Positions 6,372-58,883 of a DNA stretch of 64,000 bases are shown in pieces. Within the stretch, counting starts at the first letter, position 1. The number at the start of each line of letters is the position of its first letter. The stretch lies in NCBI GenBank assembly GCA_963727845.1, contig CAVSHI010000001.1, forward strand, positions 87,308 to 151,307, given 5' to 3'. Under the pieces are notes generated by a model that saw only the letters and a list, made by a program, of their open reading frames with translations, had not been told where the DNA came from and ran no database searches. The stretch comes from Ignavibacteriota bacterium (GTDB taxonomy: Bacteria > Bacteroidota > Ignavibacteria > UBA10030 > SZUA-254). The position numbers and the translations under genes were made by a program.

Positions 6372-7772
6372 ATGACGGCGAATATCCTGATTGTTGACGA
6401 CGAGCTGGTCATTTGCAAAAGTTGCGAGAAGATCTTTCGGAGGGTGGGTCATGAGGTGACCTACAGCACTTCCGGCAAGCATGCAATTGAGCTCCTGGGG
6501 GCGGAGACGTACGATGTTGTGTTTACCGATTTGAAAATGATGGATATCGGCGGCATGGAGGTTCTTCAAACGATAAAACAGAAGTATCCCCAGACCGTTG
6601 TCGTCGTCATCACCGGTTACGCGACCATCGCTTCTGCCATCGAGACGATGCGGTCGGGCGCGTTCGACTATCTGCCGAAACCATTTACCCCCGCCGAGCT
6701 GTTGACGGTGCTGAACAGGGCGCTGGAACGACGGAAACTGATTCAGATTTCCATGGATGAGTATCAATACTCCAACGATACGGGTTTTGAAGGCCTGATA
6801 GGAAAAAGTCCCGCCATCCAGGACGTCTATCAGTTGATTCGCAAGGTCGCCCCGACCGATTCCACCGTGCTTATCATCGGAGAAAGTGGAACGGGGAAAG
6901 ACCTGACGGCAAAAGCGATCCACAACCGGAGCAAAAGGGCCGCCGAGAAGTTTTTTGCCATTGACCTTACGACACTGCAGAGCACACTCCTGGAGAGCGA
7001 GCTCTTCGGCCACGTCAAGGGGGCGTTCACCGGTGCGACGGTCGACAAGCCCGGAGTCTTCGAGGTGGCCGACCAAGGGACGATTTTCCTCGATGAGATC
7101 GGCAACCTGCCCCCCGAAACTCAGTCCCGGCTCCTGAGGGTTTTGCAGGAAAAGGAAATCCTGCCGGTCGGAGGAACGTCCGTGAAGAAGGTCGACGTGC
7201 GGCTGATCTTCGCGACGAACAAGGATCTCAAACAACTGGTGAACGCAGGCAAGTTCAGAGAGGATTTGTACTACCGGCTGAACGTGTTTCCCATCCGGCT
7301 TCCCTCACTCCGTGAACGAAGAGAAGATATTCCCGACCTTGCGCTTCATTTCTTGAAGAAATACTCTTCCCTCATGAAAAGGGGGATTCCGACGATCAAG
7401 ACGGAAGCAATGGAATTGTTGATGAACTATCACTGGCCCGGAAACGTCCGGGAGCTCGAACATACCATCGAGCGATTGATCATCATTGTCGAGGGCGACG
7501 AGATCGACCCGGCGCATATTTCGGCGGCTCTGTTTCGCACGGAATCGAATATCCGTTCAATAATTCCGAAAACGAGCGATGAGCTCAAGAACCTGAAGAA
7601 ACAAATCCGAGCCTCGGCAATTCATGAGATTGAAAAACTTTTCATCGAGGAAGCCCTCCTCCGGAACGATTGGAATATTTCCAAGGCAGCAAGGGAAGTT
7701 AATATGCAGAGGTCAAATTTTCAATCCCTCATGAGAAAGTACAATATCGAGAAACCGGCACCCCCTGCATAA
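6372..7772 (+). CDS. Sigma-54-dependent response regulator (NtrC/AtoC family)
   Basis: Receiver domain, Walker A GESGTGKD, GAFTGA, FLDEIG, DLYYRLNV, WPGNVREL and a Fis-type HTH. Confidence 0.95.
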   Translation: MTANILIVDDELVICKSCEKIFRRVGHEVTYSTSGKHAIELLGAETYDVVFTDLKMMDIGGMEVLQTIKQKYPQTVVVVITGYATIASAIETMRSGAFDYLPKPFTPAELLTVLNRALERRKLIQISMDEYQYSNDTGFEGLIGKSPAIQDVYQLIRKVAPTDSTVLIIGESGTGKDLTAKAIHNRSKRAAEKFFAIDLTTLQSTLLESELFGHVKGAFTGATVDKPGVFEVADQGTIFLDEIGNLPPETQSRLLRVLQEKEILPVGGTSVKKVDVRLIFATNKDLKQLVNAGKFREDLYYRLNVFPIRLPSLRERREDIPDLALHFLKKYSSLMKRGIPTIKTEAMELLMNYHWPGNVRELEHTIERLIIIVEGDEIDPAHISAALFRTESNIRSIIPKTSDELKNLKKQIRASAIHEIEKLFIEEALLRNDWNISKAAREVNMQRSNFQSLMRKYNIEKPAPPA

Positions 7773-50309: not shown

Positions 50310-53300
50310 ATGAAGAGAATATACCTTTTGCTATGCGTTTTTTTGTTGGGCAGCTTTGCGGTTGCTCAGCAAGAGCGAATGCTCGTTGGGATCAACGGCG
50401 ACGTCGTTCGCTTGAAGAAAGGAGAAAGCGCATCACACGCGCTGCAGCAATTTCAAAAAGAAAAGGGGCTGAGGCAAATCTCGGAGGCCACGTGCACCAA
50501 CCCGTTGCAGTTTGGCTATGACCCCGCCGATTATCCACCAAGCGGTACTGTCTGGGTCTCCTCTTTCAAAGACATGTTCGGAGAGTGGTTCACCGTGCCC
50601 TCCGATGGCGTGATAGATACGTTTTATATGTATAATCCCGGAACTTACATGAATCAAGATTCAACGCTCGCGCTGCGATTGATGGAATCCCGTCTAAATG
50701 ACAGCACGGGACCGGGGTACGGTGCCTTGGCGCCTTACGCTCCGGGTCCGGCTGATCCTACCCTTGGCTATGGTCCCCGTTGCTGGGGGTACTTCACGAA
50801 CACTAATGACCTGGAAGGTCAGGAATACAACATTAGCCCGCAAATTGGCGGCGTCGCCGCATTCGTTACGGACGCGACCCCGCCGGACACAACCGCCTGG
50901 GTTTCGACGCTGCAAAAACAATTTCCGAATGCACCGCTGACGGTATCTCCGGCAGGAGACGAGATCTGGGGACTTGGAGGATATCCGTTCCGGCATCTTC
51001 AAGTCAATGCAGTTAACAAGTTCAATTTACATATCATTGGCGCACCGGCGGTCCATGCGGGTCAAGCGGTCCTCCTAGCGCTTATCGTTCCGGGTGCTCA
51101 CCCGGTGGGGACTGATAATACAGTAACAGGGGTTTACGATTGGCCTTCTCAGGCTGACGCCAATGGATTCTACCATACGCATGCCTGGAAATTCTATGAA
51201 CACAACAGTACGTGCGGCATTCCTGGATGGGTCGACCGCGGATACTGGGAAGTCAATATCTGGTACTCGATGACGGTATCGGGCAACACACCGCCGCGCG
51301 TAACGAGTATCACCAACCTGGGAACAACGCTTGGCGGATCTCCCCGCGATGTACTTGTCAATCTCGAGGATTGTGACTTTGCTAATGAAGCTGCGGCCGG
51401 CGTCGCCTCGGCGCACATGGCGTACTCCGTCGATGGAGGACCGTTCCAGGTGCTTCCCTTGGACTTCTTCGGCGGGACCACGTACCACGGCCAGATTCCG
51501 GCTATCGCTCCGACGACCGGCCGGCCGTATTCGCGTACCGTCCAATTCTATGTGGCGGCAGCCGATTCTCAAGGATTGGTGATGGATAGCGGCGTCGTGC
51601 ATTCGTATAAAATTATCTCGTTCGGCGATGAGTGGTATTATCCTGATACGGCGGTTGCGTGCGTTCCCCAGAGTATCAAGGATACGCCGGGCTATCAGCA
51701 ACTTGATACGACGAGCACACTGGGGGTTCACGTCCACCCGACATGGTTCGAGCCTCCATACTCGGGATCCGGTAGCGCTCCCAAGGATGATGGGACTGCA
51801 GGGCCGTTCGCGCTCGGTGGACCGTTCATTTACTTCGGGGATACGGTGAACTACGCCTGGATCGGGATGAACGGTGCGATGTCGCTCTCCAAATTCGCGA
51901 ACGATACAATCGATGTGAGCGACAACGGATTTTATACCGACTATGATTATTATTATCAAGAGGCTGAGCATCTCGGACGCGGAGATACGGCAGGTGCAGG
52001 CAACATACCGAGGAACTTTATCGCGACGCTATGGTACGACCTCATCTACGTCGATACAAGCAACGTCCAGTATGGCCGCATCTGCTGGAAGAGCGATAGT
52101 TGCCGTTTCATCTCAGAGTTCGACTCCATCGGCATCAACTATGACGTAGGAACGGGGGAAACCGGGGCCTTTTTACAGTCTCCGACGACGTTCCGCACGA
52201 TACTGAACAAGTGCGATGGCACGATCCAAATGCAATGGGACAATGTTCAGGAGTCTGGCGCTCCTGTGGATTCGATTTCGAGTGTGGGCCTCACGGGGAA
52301 CTATGGAAGGATTATCCGGCCTGATTCGGTGGCAACGCAGGTGGGTTCAAATCCCGGCTTCCTGAAGTTTTTCCGCGGGTCCGAGAACGGCCCTTATCAG
52401 CTCAAACCTCGCGACGGATGGTGCGTCGAGTTCCATCCGACCGCCGGCTCCGTGGCGGCGAGCGGCTGGAATATCCTGTCGTTGCCTGTGACGCCGCAAG
52501 GGAACAATAACGCGAAGACGACTTTGTATCCGTCGGCAGTTTCGCAGGCGTTCACGTACCGAGGCGGATATGTGCAGAGCGGGACGCTGGCGCCGGGGAT
52601 GGGTTACTGGCTGAAATTCCCCGCTGCGAATACGTACGCAACGGCGGGATTGCCTGTCTACAACGGAGTCGACAGTGTGAAGACTGACTGGAACCTCGTG
52701 GGATCGATTGTGAAACCGGTCCTGACGTCGGCGATCGTTCAGTCCCCGACGAATATCGTAACGTCGAATTACTACGGTTACAACCACGGGTACGTCATTG
52801 CGACAGAGATCGACCCGGGCAAAGGATACTGGGTGAAGTCGAACCAGACAGGCGCCCTGCAGTTGACGGCGAGCTCGATCCCGAAGGCAACGCCGGGAAT
52901 CACGGACCTGACGGTTCTGAACAAGATCACGGTGAGCGACGCTGCGAAATACCAGCAGCCGTTGTACGTTGGCAGTGAAAGCCAGCTCAAGACGCCGGCG
53001 AGCTTCTATGAACTTCCGCCGACGGTACCCGACGGCGTGTTCGATGTGCGGTTTGCGTCGCAGCGGATGCTGGAGACGTATCCGGACAATATGGCAGCCG
53101 GGAAGGTGTACGAGTACCCGATCAGTCTGCAGTCGAGTTCGTATCCAGTGACGGTTCAGTGGGATATCAAGAACACGAACGGCCGGACGCTGACATTGAC
53201 AGACGGACTGGGTGGTCGGATAGTGAACAACGTGGTGTTGAACAACACGGGATCGATCCAAATAACGAACGCGAGCGTGAAGTCGCTGGTGCTGAGACTG

Positions 53301-53600
53301 GTGGACGGAGTGGCGGTGCCGAAGGAGTTCGCGTTGAGTCAGAACTATCCGAACCCGTTCAACCCGACGACGCGGTTCAATGTGGATGTACCGAAGACGA
53401 CGAACGTCGACGTAATCGTGTACAACATACTGGGCCAGAAGGTGGCAACGTTGATGACCGGGCTGCAATCGGCCGGTTACCACACGGTGGAATGGGACGG
53501 TCGAGACGCGCATGGATTGGTGGTGCCGAGCGGGATGTACTTTGTTCGGATGTCTGCCGACCAGTTCTCGTCAGTTCGCAAGGCCATGATGCTGAAATAG
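50310..53600 (+). CDS. Large T9SS cargo protein of unknown function (FlgD-type sorting tail)
   Basis: Signal peptide; C-terminal GWNILSLP...GMGYW repeats, ELPP...FDVRF and SQNYPNPFNPTT...WDGRD...SGMYF. Confidence 0.85.
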   Translation: MKRIYLLLCVFLLGSFAVAQQERMLVGINGDVVRLKKGESASHALQQFQKEKGLRQISEATCTNPLQFGYDPADYPPSGTVWVSSFKDMFGEWFTVPSDGVIDTFYMYNPGTYMNQDSTLALRLMESRLNDSTGPGYGALAPYAPGPADPTLGYGPRCWGYFTNTNDLEGQEYNISPQIGGVAAFVTDATPPDTTAWVSTLQKQFPNAPLTVSPAGDEIWGLGGYPFRHLQVNAVNKFNLHIIGAPAVHAGQAVLLALIVPGAHPVGTDNTVTGVYDWPSQADANGFYHTHAWKFYEHNSTCGIPGWVDRGYWEVNIWYSMTVSGNTPPRVTSITNLGTTLGGSPRDVLVNLEDCDFANEAAAGVASAHMAYSVDGGPFQVLPLDFFGGTTYHGQIPAIAPTTGRPYSRTVQFYVAAADSQGLVMDSGVVHSYKIISFGDEWYYPDTAVACVPQSIKDTPGYQQLDTTSTLGVHVHPTWFEPPYSGSGSAPKDDGTAGPFALGGPFIYFGDTVNYAWIGMNGAMSLSKFANDTIDVSDNGFYTDYDYYYQEAEHLGRGDTAGAGNIPRNFIATLWYDLIYVDTSNVQYGRICWKSDSCRFISEFDSIGINYDVGTGETGAFLQSPTTFRTILNKCDGTIQMQWDNVQESGAPVDSISSVGLTGNYGRIIRPDSVATQVGSNPGFLKFFRGSENGPYQLKPRDGWCVEFHPTAGSVAASGWNILSLPVTPQGNNNAKTTLYPSAVSQAFTYRGGYVQSGTLAPGMGYWLKFPAANTYATAGLPVYNGVDSVKTDWNLVGSIVKPVLTSAIVQSPTNIVTSNYYGYNHGYVIATEIDPGKGYWVKSNQTGALQLTASSIPKATPGITDLTVLNKITVSDAAKYQQPLYVGSESQLKTPASFYELPPTVPDGVFDVRFASQRMLETYPDNMAAGKVYEYPISLQSSSYPVTVQWDIKNTNGRTLTLTDGLGGRIVNNVVLNNTGSIQITNASVKSLVLRLVDGVAVPKEFALSQNYPNPFNPTTRFNVDVPKTTNVDVIVYNILGQKVATLMTGLQSAGYHTVEWDGRDAHGLVVPSGMYFVRMSADQFSSVRKAMMLK

Positions 53601-53759: not shown

Positions 53760-54638
53760 CTAACTTACAGCTTTCTTAATCGCGAAAATATGCTCGGGGG
53801 TCGTCCCGCAACAGCCGCCGATAATTTTCACGCCGAGCTTTTTCAGCGCCAGACTTTTTTCTGCCATGAATTCCGGCGATTCCGGGAAAACGGACATCCC
53901 GTCTTTCAATGCAGGTATCCCAGCGTTTGATTGGATAATGATGGGCAGCGTTGTGTGCTTTGCGAATTCTTCCGCTATCTTCACCATATTCAGGATCCCG
54001 TTTCCGCAATTCGACCCGACAACGCCGGCACCAGCTGCGGCAAGCCCTTCCGCTGCCTGCGCGACGGTCGTTCCCATCACAGTATAAAATCCACGGGGAG
54101 TGCTGTCGAAAGTCATTGTCGCGAGGACCGGAATGGAGGACGAAATCGACCTTGCGGCCTTGACCGCCAGCGTCGCCTCGTTCAAATCTGTCATGGTTTC
54201 AACGCAAATAACATCTATGCCCTCGTCGACAAGTACCTTCAATTGCCTCCTGAAAGAGTCGAACACTTCCTCCGGTGCGGTGTCGCCGTACGGTTGAAGG
54301 ATTCTACCGCACGGGCCACACGATGCAGATACATAGGCGCGGTCTCCGACAGCTTTTCTGACAGAATGAATAGCCCGGGCGTTGATCTCCTCGGTCTTGC
54401 TCTCCAGACCGTAGGACGAGAGCTTCAGCGGTGAACCGCCGAAGGTGTTTGTTTGAATGATTTCCGCCCCCGCATAGAGGTACAGGCCGGCGATTGCCTC
54501 GAGTACTTCGAGATGGTCAAGGTTCATCCTCTCCGGACATTCACCCGGGTTCAATCCCCGCTGAAAGAGCATCGTTCCCATCGCCCCGTCGGCAATGATG
54601 ACTCCGGGCATCCCGAGTCGTTCCCTGAATGGCCGCAT
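53760..54638 (-). CDS. Homocysteine S-methyltransferase (MetH N-terminal-like domain)
   Basis: IADGAMGT, TNTFG, ETM, GSNCG, QSNAG and GGCCGTTP zinc ligands; start ATG at 54638. Confidence 0.9.
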   Translation of the reverse strand: MRPFRERLGMPGVIIADGAMGTMLFQRGLNPGECPERMNLDHLEVLEAIAGLYLYAGAEIIQTNTFGGSPLKLSSYGLESKTEEINARAIHSVRKAVGDRAYVSASCGPCGRILQPYGDTAPEEVFDSFRRQLKVLVDEGIDVICVETMTDLNEATLAVKAARSISSSIPVLATMTFDSTPRGFYTVMGTTVAQAAEGLAAAGAGVVGSNCGNGILNMVKIAEEFAKHTTLPIIIQSNAGIPALKDGMSVFPESPEFMAEKSLALKKLGVKIIGGCCGTTPEHIFAIKKAVS

Positions 54639-55277
54639 CAGGTTCTCTTGACGAATTTCTTCACGCAATCAACGGCGCTGACACCGTCGAAACAATACGA
54701 ATCCGCTCCGATTTCCCGGGCATATTCCATCGACAACGGAGCGCCGCCCACAATGATCCTGGTTTTTCCATACAGCCGACGTTCCTTTGCCAGCTCGACG
54801 ACCTTTTTCATGACCGGCATTGTCGTTGTCAGCAGCGCCGACATCCCGATGACGTTCCGCATGTTCCTTCTCGGCAGTTTCGATGAATTGCTGCGGCGAT
54901 ACGTCATTGCCGAGATCGATCACTTCGAAGCCGGCGCCCTTGAGCATGATGGCGACGAGATTCTTGCCGATGTCGTGGAGGTCGCCCTGGACGGTGCCTA
55001 TTACCACCTTGCCGATCGTTTTCACTCCATCTCTGATAAGAAGCGGTTTCAGCAAATCCATGCCTGCGTACATTGCTTTGGCGGCAAGAAGAACCTCCGG
55101 TAAGAATATTTCGTGGTGTTTAAACTGCTCTCCCACAATCGACATTCCCGCGATAAGCCCGTCGTCCAAGATTATCCTTGGCTCGAGTCCTTTTCCGATC
55201 GCGAGTTGGGTGGCCTCTGCAGTTTTCTTTACATCGCCGCTCCGGAGACTGCCGGCTAATTGTTCAAGAATTTCCAT
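54638..55277 (-). pseudogene. Corrinoid (B12-binding) protein with a +1 frameshift at 54851-54857 (212 aa if corrected)
   Basis: Cap domain, GDLHDIGKNLV (DxHxxG); IGMSALLTTT and IVGGAP are in the next frame, whose stop overlaps the downstream ATG. Confidence 0.85.
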
Positions 55278-55291
55278 TGTCTCTTGCTTGT

Positions 55292-56005
55292 CTATTGTTC
55301 TATGACGGACTTAATTCTTTCCCGGCAACTATGCGTTGTGCAATCTCTGCAGAAGGGGAAAGTATCCTCGAATGAAAAAATTTCCTTCTTCCCGGAAATG
55401 ATCACACCGCTGATTGATTTCAGAGGTTGCATGAGAAAACTTTCGTTGAGCGTTATTCCGATGTCAGCCGGGGTGAGATGTGCAAAGAGTCGTTTTTGTC
55501 CGCTGATGTCCCAACCGCAGTAGCCGGGACTAAACCGGAGTATGCCAGTGTTGTGGTCGTGCCGGTGTGACTCGTTCAGCGATCGGCGATAGACGTTTTG
55601 AACGGCCTGGGCTGCCATCTCGGCGCCTTCGGAAGCCGTCGAGTCGAGCATGGAGCCAAGAGCAAAGTCGTTCGACTGGAAAAGTCGAGAAATTTCATCT
55701 GAAACGCTCTTGCCGAGAGTAGCTGCATACAGGGCAAGAGTTCCCGATGCCCCGGCGATGGGTTTGACGGGCGATGCGTCATCGTTCAGACCTTCGCCTT
55801 CAAAAACATTCCTGAAATCCCCCGGGGAGATTTCAACGTACATTCCCGCTGGTTGGGCATGTTGCCTGTAAATAGAGATTGCGTCCCGTGCGAGTTGCAG
55901 GATATGCTCGCCCGGCTGACGCCAGGCAGGGATCCCCTGGGCTTCAAGAACGGCGCTCACGCCAGGAATAACATCTGCAACCGGTATTTCGAGAATACGT
56001 TTCAC
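55292..56005 (-). CDS. B12-dependent methionine synthase activation-domain-like protein
   Basis: LYAATLG, RFSPGYCGW, GITLNESFLMQPLKSISGVI and the C-terminal CRDC...C motif. Confidence 0.85.
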   Translation of the reverse strand: MKRILEIPVADVIPGVSAVLEAQGIPAWRQPGEHILQLARDAISIYRQHAQPAGMYVEISPGDFRNVFEGEGLNDDASPVKPIAGASGTLALYAATLGKSVSDEISRLFQSNDFALGSMLDSTASEGAEMAAQAVQNVYRRSLNESHRHDHNTGILRFSPGYCGWDISGQKRLFAHLTPADIGITLNESFLMQPLKSISGVIISGKKEIFSFEDTFPFCRDCTTHSCRERIKSVIEQ

Positions 56006-57463
56006 GATAGATTCTCGGGCAATCGTGCCATTCCGTAACGCCGCGCTTCAGTTTCTATGAGCTTCGTAAGATCCCTTTTGATTTCTTTTGGAAGAGCGGT
56101 GGGCCGGTAAGAACCGAGCAGACCTTCAATTTGCTGCCGGGCCCGATCCTGGAGCCCCGAGCTTCCTTCTTCTTCCCATCGTGCCCTGTTGGCGCGGTTG
56201 ATGACGGGCCCTGGAAAATAATCCTCCTGTTTCAGATATTTGCGTGTATGGTCGGCGATGAGGAGATGCTTTTCCCGAAGAAGTTCATCGAAGATCGGCC
56301 GAGCCGGGAAATCTTCCTTCGGCTCAATTCCTCTGATCATCCGGAAAGTCATGCCGCAGATCTCATTATCGACGACCAGCTTTTCAAGGCTGAAGCAACT
56401 TTCAAAATCGAGCATCCCCGGCCCTGAGATGTTGTTGATCCCGGAAAGCGCCGCAAGAGTTGCTCCCATCGAGGATTCAAGACCGGCCTGCGCGTCGAGA
56501 GACTTTGAATCGCTCAACCCGATGTATGCCTGTGTCGGCAGGCCCAGGTATTTCCCGATTTCATTGTATGCACAATCGATCATCATCGTGCCGATGGCGC
56601 CCATGGGCGTGGTTTCGTATCGGACGTTCGAAGAATGCGGGCGACCCGCCGTACAGAACCGGCGTGCCCGGATTTGTAAGCTGGCTCATCACCAGCCCGC
56701 TGAGGGTCTCAGCCGTGTGCTGGACGAGCGAGCCGACAAGCGTCACCGGAGACATGAAACCCGAAAGCGGCATTGAGATGTATTCGACAGGGATTGAGTA
56801 TCGTGCGCAATCGATAAGGTTTTGCGATGTGACATCGCTCCACTTCAGCGGCGAAGTGGGACAGCACGAAAATATCGTCAATGGCCGCGATGCAAGATTC
56901 TCCTTCGAGCCCCGCACCGCAAGCTGCAGCTCTTTCATAATTTCGAACGCTTCGATGGTAAACGCGCCCGTCACAACGGGTTTTTCACAATACGACAGGC
57001 TGAGGTACAGGCGGTAGCTGTCGGATATCCGCTCATGAACATCCGCCGGAATCATTGCCGTTGATTGTGAAGCGATGTTGTTCATACCCGACATCAGCTT
57101 TGCGTATCTGATGTAGTCAGCGGTGGTCGGTTTTCGAATCTTGTTCGTCGTGCCGTCCAGGACGTTGATTGCCGCCGAGCCGGGAGTGAAATTCACGGTG
57201 AAACCGGAAAGGTCGACGGCCTCCTCGCCCAGAACGTCAAAAAGCTTAAACGCATGGGGCGCTGCGGCCAATGCGTTATCGATCAAACTTTGTGTGAAAT
57301 AAACACGCCGGGTACTTTTGTCGATGCGCGCACCGGAGTCCGACAGCATGGAGAGAGCGGTATCATTGTGAATCTCCATGCCGAGGCTGCACAAGAGATC
57401 TCTTCCTTCTCCGACGATTCTCTCAATAAGGTCATCGCTGAGAAATTTTACAACGGGTCTCAC
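56002..57463 (-). pseudogene. mttB: MttB-superfamily (non-pyrrolysine) corrinoid methyltransferase with a +1 frameshift at 56623-56629 (486 aa if corrected)
   Basis: LCSLGMEI, SPLKW, GSLVQHTAETLSG, PGTPVLYG, DAQAGLES and GMLDF; the two ORFs join as FDVRYETTPMGA. Confidence 0.85.
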
Positions 57464-57521
57464 ATGAAATTCCTTTCAACTTTACAGATTGCATCTAATA
57501 TGTGAATATTTCAAATGTATT

Positions 57522-58883
57522 TCAATCTGTGGAATATAAGGCTCTTTTCTTCCAATAAAAATATGCCGGCAATCCCAAAAGAATAATCCCGAGTCCGATG
57601 ACGGCATCTCTCGGGTCTTCAACGATCGTCGTGATCACGAGATAAAGCGAAAACAGGATAAAAATAACCGGCGTAAACGGATATCCCCATGTTCTGTACG
57701 ACCTGGGAAGCTCCGGCGACCGCCTACGCAGCACCATCACAGCCCCCGCCGCCATTGCGTAAAATATCCAGGAAGCGAAAATGGCATAGGTGAACAGTTG
57801 ATTGAAAGTGCTCGTGACGACAAGGAAACTCGCCCAGAGTCCCTGGCCGACCAGTGACGGCACGGGCGTATGGTACTTCGGGTGGATCCTGGCGAACGAC
57901 TTGAAGAACACTTTCTCCGACGCCATAGCGTAGTAGATGCGCGCGCCCGTCAGGATAAATCCGTTGTTGCATCCCACCATGGCGATGATGACACCGATGA
58001 CCGCCATCGTGGCGCCGATGGGTCCAACGATCGCCGTCGCGGCATCGGCGGCAACGAGCGTTGATTTTGAGATTGCATCGAGCGAGAGAACCGAAATGTA
58101 CGTGAAATTGGTCAAGGCGTAAATGACGATGACGATGAATGTCGAGAGAATCACCGACCTCGGAATGTTCCTCTGAGGGTTCTTCACCTCGCCCGCGACG
58201 TAGGTGATCTCGATCCACCCGTCATACGCCCAGAGCACGGCCACCAGCGCCAGACCGAGCGGCCCCGCAATACCTGATAATGCCGGAAAACTCGTGAGAG
58301 TTGGCCAGCCGACAGAGTTCACGGCATGAAGGAAAAAACCGAGAATGACAAGGAGAAGAAGCGCCGCCATTTTTGAAAACGTGAAGATATTCTGGACCAG
58401 AGCACCCGCCTTCACGCCAAAACAATTGATGGCGGTGAGCGTTGCGATGGAAGCAATGGCAACGATCTTTATTCCCGCAGGCGAAAGCGGGACAAAATAG
58501 CCGAGGTAGGTGGCGAATCCCACTGCGACCGCAGAGATCGAAGCGCCCATGATCACCGCGAACGCAGTCCAACCGTAGAGGAATCCCCACAGTTGTCCGT
58601 AAGCGTCCGAGAGGTACACATACTGACCGCCCGCCTTCGGGTACATTGCTCCCAGCTCGGCAACTGAAAGCGCACCCAGGAGGCTCACGCCGCCCCCGAT
58701 GATCCATACAAATATCACCAGAGAAGACGAGTGAAGATAAAGCGCTATGGTTGCCGGGACCAGAAAAATGCCCGAGCCGATAATGCTTCCGACGTTGACC
58801 ATCGTCGAATCCAGCAACGATAGTTCGCGCCGGAGCTCCGGCCGGCTTTCCAAGGGCTGCGTATGTTCTGCAGTCTGATTCAA
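57522..58883 (-). CDS. APC-family amino acid permease
   Basis: GSIIGSGIF, ELGAMYPKAGG.Y, WAYDGW and EVKNPQRNIP; about 12 TM helices. Confidence 0.92.
   Translation of the reverse strand: MNQTAEHTQPLESRPELRRELSLLDSTMVNVGSIIGSGIFLVPATIALYLHSSSLVIFVWIIGGGVSLLGALSVAELGAMYPKAGGQYVYLSDAYGQLWGFLYGWTAFAVIMGASISAVAVGFATYLGYFVPLSPAGIKIVAIASIATLTAINCFGVKAGALVQNIFTFSKMAALLLLVILGFFLHAVNSVGWPTLTSFPALSGIAGPLGLALVAVLWAYDGWIEITYVAGEVKNPQRNIPRSVILSTFIVIVIYALTNFTYISVLSLDAISKSTLVAADAATAIVGPIGATMAVIGVIIAMVGCNNGFILTGARIYYAMASEKVFFKSFARIHPKYHTPVPSLVGQGLWASFLVVTSTFNQLFTYAIFASWIFYAMAAGAVMVLRRRSPELPRSYRTWGYPFTPVIFILFSLYLVITTIVEDPRDAVIGLGIILLGLPAYFYWKKRALYSTD

Follow-up and report, generated by a model that had tools for sequence, protein, structure and literature searches.

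We report a five-gene operon on the minus strand (positions 53760-58883) of a 64,000-nucleotide stretch of DNA from an Ignavibacteriota bacterium (assembly GCA_963727845.1, contig CAVSHI010000001.1, positions 87,308 to 151,307), the whole of which is called the window below. Four of its proteins probably form, with appreciable room for doubt, a corrinoid-dependent methyl relay to methionine, which is accessory in this organism and whose two frameshifts are most likely errors of the assembly. The same four-component cluster has been described in Ca. Electryoneota metagenome-assembled genomes, where corrinoid-dependent methionine synthesis from an unknown donor was proposed; its authors also observed it together with a full MetH and recorded it in diverse bacteria (Williams et al. 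2022, Environ Microbiol 24:2576, PMC9324843). The cassette and the methionine hypothesis were thus already published in 2022 and are not new here.

From the gene content, gene order, conservation, residues and indel pattern described below, we infer each chemical step, which way the methyl group moves and what kind of donor supplies it, as follows. The MttB-family enzyme, as first methyltransferase (MT1), would transfer a methyl group from a non-folate donor to Co(I) of the small corrinoid protein, and the homocysteine S-methyltransferase (HMT), a MetH-type zinc enzyme (MT2), would pass it from methylcorrinoid to homocysteine, giving methionine. The activation protein could rescue the Co(II) state by reductive methylation with S-adenosylmethionine (AdoMet), as in MetH, with no ATP-dependent RamA-type activator involved. 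Alongside an intact MetH, the cassette could serve as an accessory route capturing outside methyl groups in an Ignavibacteria-type sediment bacterium, and the adjoining permease, apparently of the L-type amino acid transporter (LAT) kind, may import or exchange an alpha-amino acid, be it the donor, homocysteine or methionine.

Gene content and conservation of the cassette

All five genes are co-directional and each has Pfam support: an APC amino-acid permease of 453 amino acids, apparently of LAT/SLC7 type (57522-58883; AA_permease_2, 188 bits), an MttB-superfamily non-pyrrolysine methyltransferase of 486 amino acids if one extra base is ignored (56002-57463; MTTB, in two pieces), a stand-alone homologue of the AdoMet-binding activation domain of MetH with 237 amino acids (55292-56005; Met_synt_B12), a corrinoid protein with B12 cap and Rossmann domain, 212 amino acids long if one extra base is ignored (54638-55277; B12-binding_2 and B12-binding), and a MetH-type HMT of 292 amino acids (53760-54638; S-methyl_trans, 214.5 bits). 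The HMT length is counted from the conserved ATG at 54638 rather than from the TTG at 54668 given by the open reading frame (ORF) finder. A reading of the window from its letters and ORFs (the sequence-only reading) had listed these same five genes, and all were recovered by the profile searches. The MttB and activation protein genes overlap in GTGA, and those of the corrinoid protein and HMT in TGATG, indicating tight coupling of the operon genes.

Homologues of the homocysteine-binding, B12-binding and AdoMet-activation modules of MetH are all present, with the cysteine motifs, DxHxxG and (R)xxxGY kept, but here each module is a protein of its own, there is no pterin-binding one, and its place is taken by a TIM barrel of the MttB family. 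The sequence-only reading had likewise described a MetH-like set in which MttB replaces the folate module, a description that holds. No pterin-binding gene occurs in or beside the operon, and the same is true of most of the 80 related loci described below. With its four genes adjacent and no pterin-binding gene in the cluster, the locus has the composition of the cassette of Williams et al. (2022), sharing with the Electryoneota cluster the non-pyrrolysine MttB/MtgB homologue, the homocysteine S-methyltransferase, the corrinoid protein and the activation protein. It differs in its Ignavibacteria-type host, in the adjoining LAT-type permease (also found at four related loci) and in the two apparent frameshifts.

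The scan for relatives used one genome per species and returned 153 loci, the best 80 of which were kept, with 68-95% identity over the N-terminal 280 residues. These 80 loci carry the labels Ignavibacteria/Bacteroidota, Zixibacteria, Planctomycetota (Phycisphaerae), Acidobacteriota, Fermentibacteria/Aegiribacteria, WOR-3/Stahlbacteria, Elusimicrobiota, Gemmatimonadales, Deltaproteobacteria and others. In 49 of them the genes run MttB, activation protein, corrinoid protein and HMT, the rest being mostly cut by contig ends, with a handful of true exceptions, and nine relatives from the same taxonomic order as this genome have the same arrangement. Clustering of every ORF in the 80 loci revealed no conserved neighbour beyond the four genes, and no pterin-binding gene, RamA, regulator or common transporter conserved beside them. 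No cobalamin, AdoMet or other riboswitch was found around the operon, nor at 11 of the related loci. Conservation of the five-gene order had been named as a check by the sequence-only reading; the four-gene core is conserved, and the permease is not, being directly upstream in only four other loci.

Downstream of the operon, on the opposite strand, lies a gene for a 1096-amino-acid protein (50310-53600, plus strand) whose C-terminus carries a sorting domain for type IX secretion (Por_Secre_tail, 37.7 bits), which fits a Bacteroidota/Ignavibacteria-type host.

The MttB homologue and its predicted donor

The pieces of the MttB homologue that flank its frameshift match the MTTB profile (PF06253) at positions 29-296 (141.5 bits) and 316-495 (105.3 bits), and its relatives match across a single frame of 486 amino acids, placing it in the MttB superfamily. 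In all nine relatives of the same taxonomic order, MttB is one open frame of about 486 amino acids with 74-93% identity. The best NCBIfam model is that of trimethylamine MttB (TIGR02369), at 369 bits against a cut-off of 525. Leu316 aligns with pyrrolysine 334 (Pyl334) of Methanosarcina barkeri MttB, and Leu occupies this column in 69 of the 70 clade members. Given the low score and the Leu, the protein does not belong to the TIGR02369 equivalog. There is no in-frame TAG at the codon equivalent to that of Pyl334, and no tRNA-Pyl was found in the tRNA set of the genome.

The homologue scores nearly equally against MtgB (192 bits) and the pyrrolysine-containing MttB (180 bits). In MtgB, glycine betaine is bound by Y97, R312, H348 and F356 (Picking et al. 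2026). These residues align with S96, Q311, S346 and E354 of the protein studied here, which is hence not assigned to MtgB, and S96, Q311 and E354 are invariant in the 70 clade sequences, with S346 present in 67 of them. The pyrrolysine-containing MttB carries Gly, Tyr, Tyr and Gly at the four positions, so that the Ser/Gln/Ser/Glu pocket is unlike both characterised types. Since all four betaine-binding residues of MtgB are replaced, betaine is an improbable methyl donor. The sequence-only reading had leaned on the precedent of glycine betaine, proline betaine and carnitine, which we judge unlikely donors on these grounds. The loss of both basic residues and the gain of a Glu, with the invariant D352 nearby, would favour a positively charged donor that has no carboxylate close by, and judging by these pocket residues we take a cationic N-methyl compound, one lacking the carboxylate of betaines, as the most likely donor.

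The Rfam model PYLIS_3 matches inside the gene of the MttB homologue (56418-56517, minus strand, 34.5 bits), and it matches five related loci (L021, L022, L026, L034 and L044, at about 6945-7045) with 38.6-48.5 bits, above the gathering threshold. By coordinate arithmetic the match begins at the Leu316 codon, in the column of Pyl334. As the TAG is absent, we read it as conserved coding sequence common to Pyl-type mttB rather than as a working insertion element.

HMT, corrinoid protein and activation protein

The best solved relative of HMT is the homocysteine-binding part of the 1q7m chain (172 bits), deposited as 5-methyltetrahydrofolate S-homocysteine methyltransferase. Cys211 and Cys276-Cys277 of HMT (in NCG and GGCCGTTPEH) align with the cysteine motifs of 1q7m (NCS and GGCCGTTPEH), and we take these three cysteines to be the zinc ligands. 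Conservation across 45 orthologues extends to the motifs DGAMGT, ETMTD, GSNCGNG and GGCCGTTP. The profile match, the three cysteines and the DGAxGT and E-T motifs together place HMT in the MetH/BHMT-type homocysteine S-methyltransferases (PF02574), and because it resembles the homocysteine-binding part of 1q7m and keeps its cysteines, homocysteine is likely the acceptor.

The corrinoid protein has a B12-binding_2 match of 67 bits and a B12-binding match in two pieces, with domains on either side of its frameshift. Its motifs DLHDIGKN, SALLTTTM and GGAP are conserved among the orthologues, DLHDIG being the His-on motif, and with PF02607, PF02310 and DxHxxG present it has the make-up of a cognate corrinoid protein. 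The NCBIfam MtgC-type and pyl_corrinoid models score 190-208 bits, under their cut-offs, and the protein falls short of the MtgC, MtbC and MtaC equivalogs.

The activation protein matches Met_synt_B12 (PF02965) with 34.8 bits against a cut-off of 25, and its only solved relative is 1j6r, a 214-amino-acid chain deposited as 'methionine synthase' (31.6 bits), which we take to be the stand-alone protein TM0269 of Thermotoga maritima. Its RFSPGY aligns with RISPGY of 1j6r, a putative AdoMet-binding motif (RxxxGY). SPGY is conserved in the activation proteins, and the Arg of the motif is not kept in most orthologues. SPGYCGW and FCxxCxxxSC, with four cysteines, are conserved in 61 sequences. These cysteines may form a metal or iron-sulfur site through which electrons enter during reactivation. 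Just one of the four, a cysteine close to the GY motif, is matched in the genome's own MetH (FGYPACP).

Frameshifts in the MttB and corrinoid protein genes

The sequence-only reading was right about the presence of the genes and overlooked that two of them lack intact frames as deposited. Both breaks lie in the heptamer GAACGTC on the minus strand. The MttB gene has one extra A at 56627 (heptamer 56623-56629), where relatives read TTC GAT/GAC GTN with no gap, and the corrinoid protein gene has one at 54856 (heptamer 54851-54857), where relatives read GCG GAC/GAT RTN with no gap. The deposited MttB gene is therefore split into two ORFs that do not share a reading frame (57463-56561 and 56604-56002), and three-frame translation shows the frame switch after ...GGSPAFF in MttB and after ...AEKEHA (residue about 140) in the corrinoid protein. 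Since the Asp codon of the relatives is ungapped at each site, the assembly has one extra A within it.

These insertions could be genuine, in which case MttB and the corrinoid protein would be inactivated and the locus a pseudogene relic, with MetH perhaps making the system dispensable. The deposited sequence is frameshifted at both sites, neither of which is covered by a read that could contradict it, and an intact MetH is present, all of which would suit such a relic. However, when the assembly was compared with a 100-kb syntenic contig of a same-genus genome (G001), the same kind of single-extra-base break was found in 4 of the 24 orthologous genes, namely those of MttB, the corrinoid protein and two large proteins of about 790 and 844 amino acids (C1:188535 and C1:152443, the latter 1.1 kb past the window end). 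LepA is broken twice in the same way (C1:677170 and C1:677505). Such a rate, about one gene in six or a break every 7 kb or so of conserved coding sequence, far exceeds what real pseudogenes would explain in a genome of 4.1 Mb on six contigs, scored 97.6% complete, and favours consensus errors. Moreover, the two cassette genes are otherwise 88-95% identical to those of the congener, with each half open. The sole public run with this organism, apparently a shallow short-read run (Nextera adaptor) covering about a quarter of the sequence, yielded one indel in the covered stretches, a contig without an A that the assembly has in the AAA run at C1:685644, and so contradicts one assembly insertion. 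On this balance a pseudogene relic is unlikely.

The shared heptamer would also suit programmed recoding, in which a +1 slip of the ribosome, or its decoding of four bases at once, would occur at GAA-CGU-C in either gene. Both sites do carry GAA CGT C in frame, and GAACGTC is enriched at +1 ORF junctions genome-wide: long ORFs become joined when the A is removed at 44 of 952 GAACGTC sites, compared with 0.7-2.6% for control heptamers. Nevertheless, every relative examined, including the congener, is uninterrupted with Asp at the site, the other frameshifts lie in unrelated contexts, and the genome has tRNA-Arg(ACG) and no tRNA with an unusual anticodon. At strict +1 junctions across the genome, GAACGTC occurs 7 times and its reverse complement GACGTTC 6 times, with 1.6 expected for each, and neither is enriched at -1 junctions. 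Such equal enrichment on both strands points to an event at the level of DNA or consensus rather than of translation, and programmed frameshifting, which is hardly conceivable under these observations, was rejected. A blanket error at every GACGTC, for example at a methylation motif, was rejected as well, since 899 intact GACGTC remain in the genome, 13 of them in the window. The pattern suggests a context-dependent insertion bias at GACGTC. We are thus fairly confident that both breaks are consensus errors, inserted by the assembly, and the operon is probably intact in the cell.

Other methionine routes in the genome

The genome encodes an intact MetH of 1178 amino acids with all four modules, which makes the cassette accessory in this organism; a role as its sole methionine synthase was rejected for the same reason. 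No MetE (PF01717) and no RamA-type activator were found in the genome. A need for a pterin-binding partner encoded elsewhere would speak against the sequence-only reading; the PF00809 profile search of the genome revealed no stand-alone one, as its matches were the full-length MetH and a 291-amino-acid ORF, which is probably FolP. Since no other acceptor was found, a methyl group on the cassette corrinoid protein has no evident exit except homocysteine.

This bears on the alternative that the cassette is mainly a catabolic demethylase using homocysteine as a mere recyclable methyl sink, or that methyl groups flow in reverse, from methionine or another thioether to the corrinoid, so that supplying methionine would not be what it is for. 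The characterised non-Pyl MttB relatives do serve catabolism, and another methionine synthase accompanies the cassette in nine of the ten genomes of this taxonomic order that carry it (eight with MetH, one with MetE). However, the genome lacks a methylcorrinoid:tetrahydrofolate methyltransferase to feed one-carbon oxidation and has a single MttB-family gene, and a thioether is a poor methyl donor, as is established from MetH chemistry, so that we regard a catabolic or reverse role as distinctly unlikely.

The tenth of these genomes (G023, same family, genus g3) carries the cassette with neither MetH (at E<=1e-50) nor MetE (PF01717) detected, an insecure absence in a draft of 230 contigs. In no other relative could methionine synthesis depend on the cassette alone. 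Such a genome would suit a further alternative, in which the MttB-like protein binds an endogenous one-carbon carrier such as methyl-tetrahydrofolate and the cassette is a split alternative MetH. A housekeeping substrate of this kind would also fit the unusual conservation of the clade across phyla, with 202 of the 486 MttB positions at least 95% conserved, and the lack of a conserved transporter. Against this, folate binding is not known for any member of the MttB family, MetH is already there in most carriers, this genome among them, and the case of G023 depends on a fragmented draft, which leaves the methyl-tetrahydrofolate alternative very improbable.

A third stand-alone corrinoid protein, of 222 amino acids, is encoded on another contig (C3:100702-101370) next to proteins of 421, 462 and 473 amino acids (C3:97579-103093), read from their sequences as a uroporphyrinogen-decarboxylase-like methyltransferase (421) and two MFS sugar-type transporters (462 and 473). 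This cluster may be a separate corrinoid-dependent O-demethylation system.

The permease

The best NCBIfam model for the permease is that of the L-type amino acid transporters (TIGR00911), at 286 bits far under the cut-off of 701.8. Among solved structures it is closest to 6f2g (248 bits), which bears the title 'putative amino acid/polyamine transport protein' and is presumably BasC, a bacterial Ala-Ser-Cys exchanger, and the human SLC7 transporters xCT, y+LAT and LAT1 come next (190-244 bits). These similarities suggest an alpha-amino acid as cargo. The permease could carry the methyl donor; homocysteine or methionine would fit equally well. The sequence-only reading was correct that a permease gene adjoins the cassette, and donor import, which it had assumed, is one of several options.

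ORF clustering found the permease in five of the 80 loci. An orthologue lies directly upstream of MttB in four loci besides this one, all Ignavibacteria-type (L023, L024, L025 and L030), and in the congener G001 (L019) it is 4.8 kb from MttB with three unrelated genes between. The permease is therefore not part of the conserved unit, its link to the cassette being confined to this lineage. At L030 (labelled Bacteroidetes bacterium UBA10030, 644-3365) the permease gene sits beside that of MttB, and no gene for an activation protein, corrinoid protein or HMT follows within the next 5 kb, so that the MttB-permease pair is detached there from the rest of the cassette.

The Ser/Gln/Ser/Glu pocket, the Leu in the pyrrolysine column and the LAT-type exchanger also raise a bolder possibility, namely that the clade activates a donor class new to the superfamily, of alpha-amino-acid type (for example with an N-methylated side chain), and that the cassette is a fifth kind of methionine synthase, B12-dependent, folate-independent and fed from the environment. 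We consider this extension unlikely as a whole.

Comparison with characterised systems and points against the relay

Genetic work in Ruegeria showed that a single corrinoid protein serves to demethylate glycine betaine as well as to make methionine (Mausz et al. 2025, PMC12478193). The MtgBCDE system of Ruegeria pomeroyi and the split MetH of Phaeobacter inhibens resemble the present cassette in the proposal that one corrinoid protein is used by both an MttB-family enzyme and a homocysteine-binding subunit, which ties the demethylation of a methylated amine to the making of methionine. In that system the pterin-binding MtgD is essential for methionine, reactivation involves RamA and DUF1638, the genes are dispersed, and MtgB acts on glycine betaine (PMC12478193), whereas here there is neither MtgD nor RamA, all four genes lie in a single operon, and other residues stand where MtgB binds the betaine.

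The MtgB/MtgC/MtgA system of Desulfitobacterium hafniense and the MtpB/MtcB/MtyB/MthB enzymes of Eubacterium limosum share PF06253, the absence of pyrrolysine and the transfer of the methyl group first to a small corrinoid protein. The acceptor enzyme of these MtgB/Mtp-type systems is a methylcorrinoid:tetrahydrofolate methyltransferase, in contrast to the homocysteine methyltransferase here, and the match to MtgB reaches only 192 bits. With the pyrrolysine-containing MttB of Methanosarcina the homologue shares the best NCBIfam model, high local identity around the active-site strands and the PYLIS_3 match, but it differs in its score below the cut-off, in Leu for Pyl334 with no in-frame TAG, and in its partner, which is not the coenzyme M methyltransferase MtbA. 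The folate-independent core methionine synthases (core-MetE, MesA-D) also methylate homocysteine with a methylated corrinoid and not methyl-folate as the immediate donor (Price et al. 2021; Deobald et al. 2020). They have the MetE fold (PF01717-like), whereas the acceptor enzyme here has the MetH/BHMT fold and the genome has no PF01717 match.

Several observations weigh against a working relay in an intact operon. The short-read run missed both cassette frameshift sites together with two other known sites. Chance is an unlikely reason for finding one heptamer at both sites, and a consensus error specific to a k-mer accounts for it only loosely. At 34.8 bits the activation-domain match is weak, no conserved transporter, regulator or riboswitch hints at the donor, and the literature search found no biochemical or genetic characterisation of this MttB clade.

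Implications

The interpretation in the sequence-only reading was reasonable and already published, too specific on the permease and too reliant on the betaine precedent. To the published cassette the window adds the coexistence with MetH in this host, split genes traced to an error-prone assembly, and a lineage-specific link to an apparent LAT-type amino-acid exchanger, which offers a clue to the donor. Given its frequent single-base insertions, split genes in this assembly should not be taken as pseudogenes or as recoding.

If the relay operates as proposed, many uncultured bacteria of sediments and anoxic waters would make methionine, and hence AdoMet, from an environmental methyl donor, with no reduced folate one-carbon units spent on that methionine. 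Methylated-amine turnover, vitamin B12 demand and the supply of sulfur amino acids would thereby become linked in these organisms.

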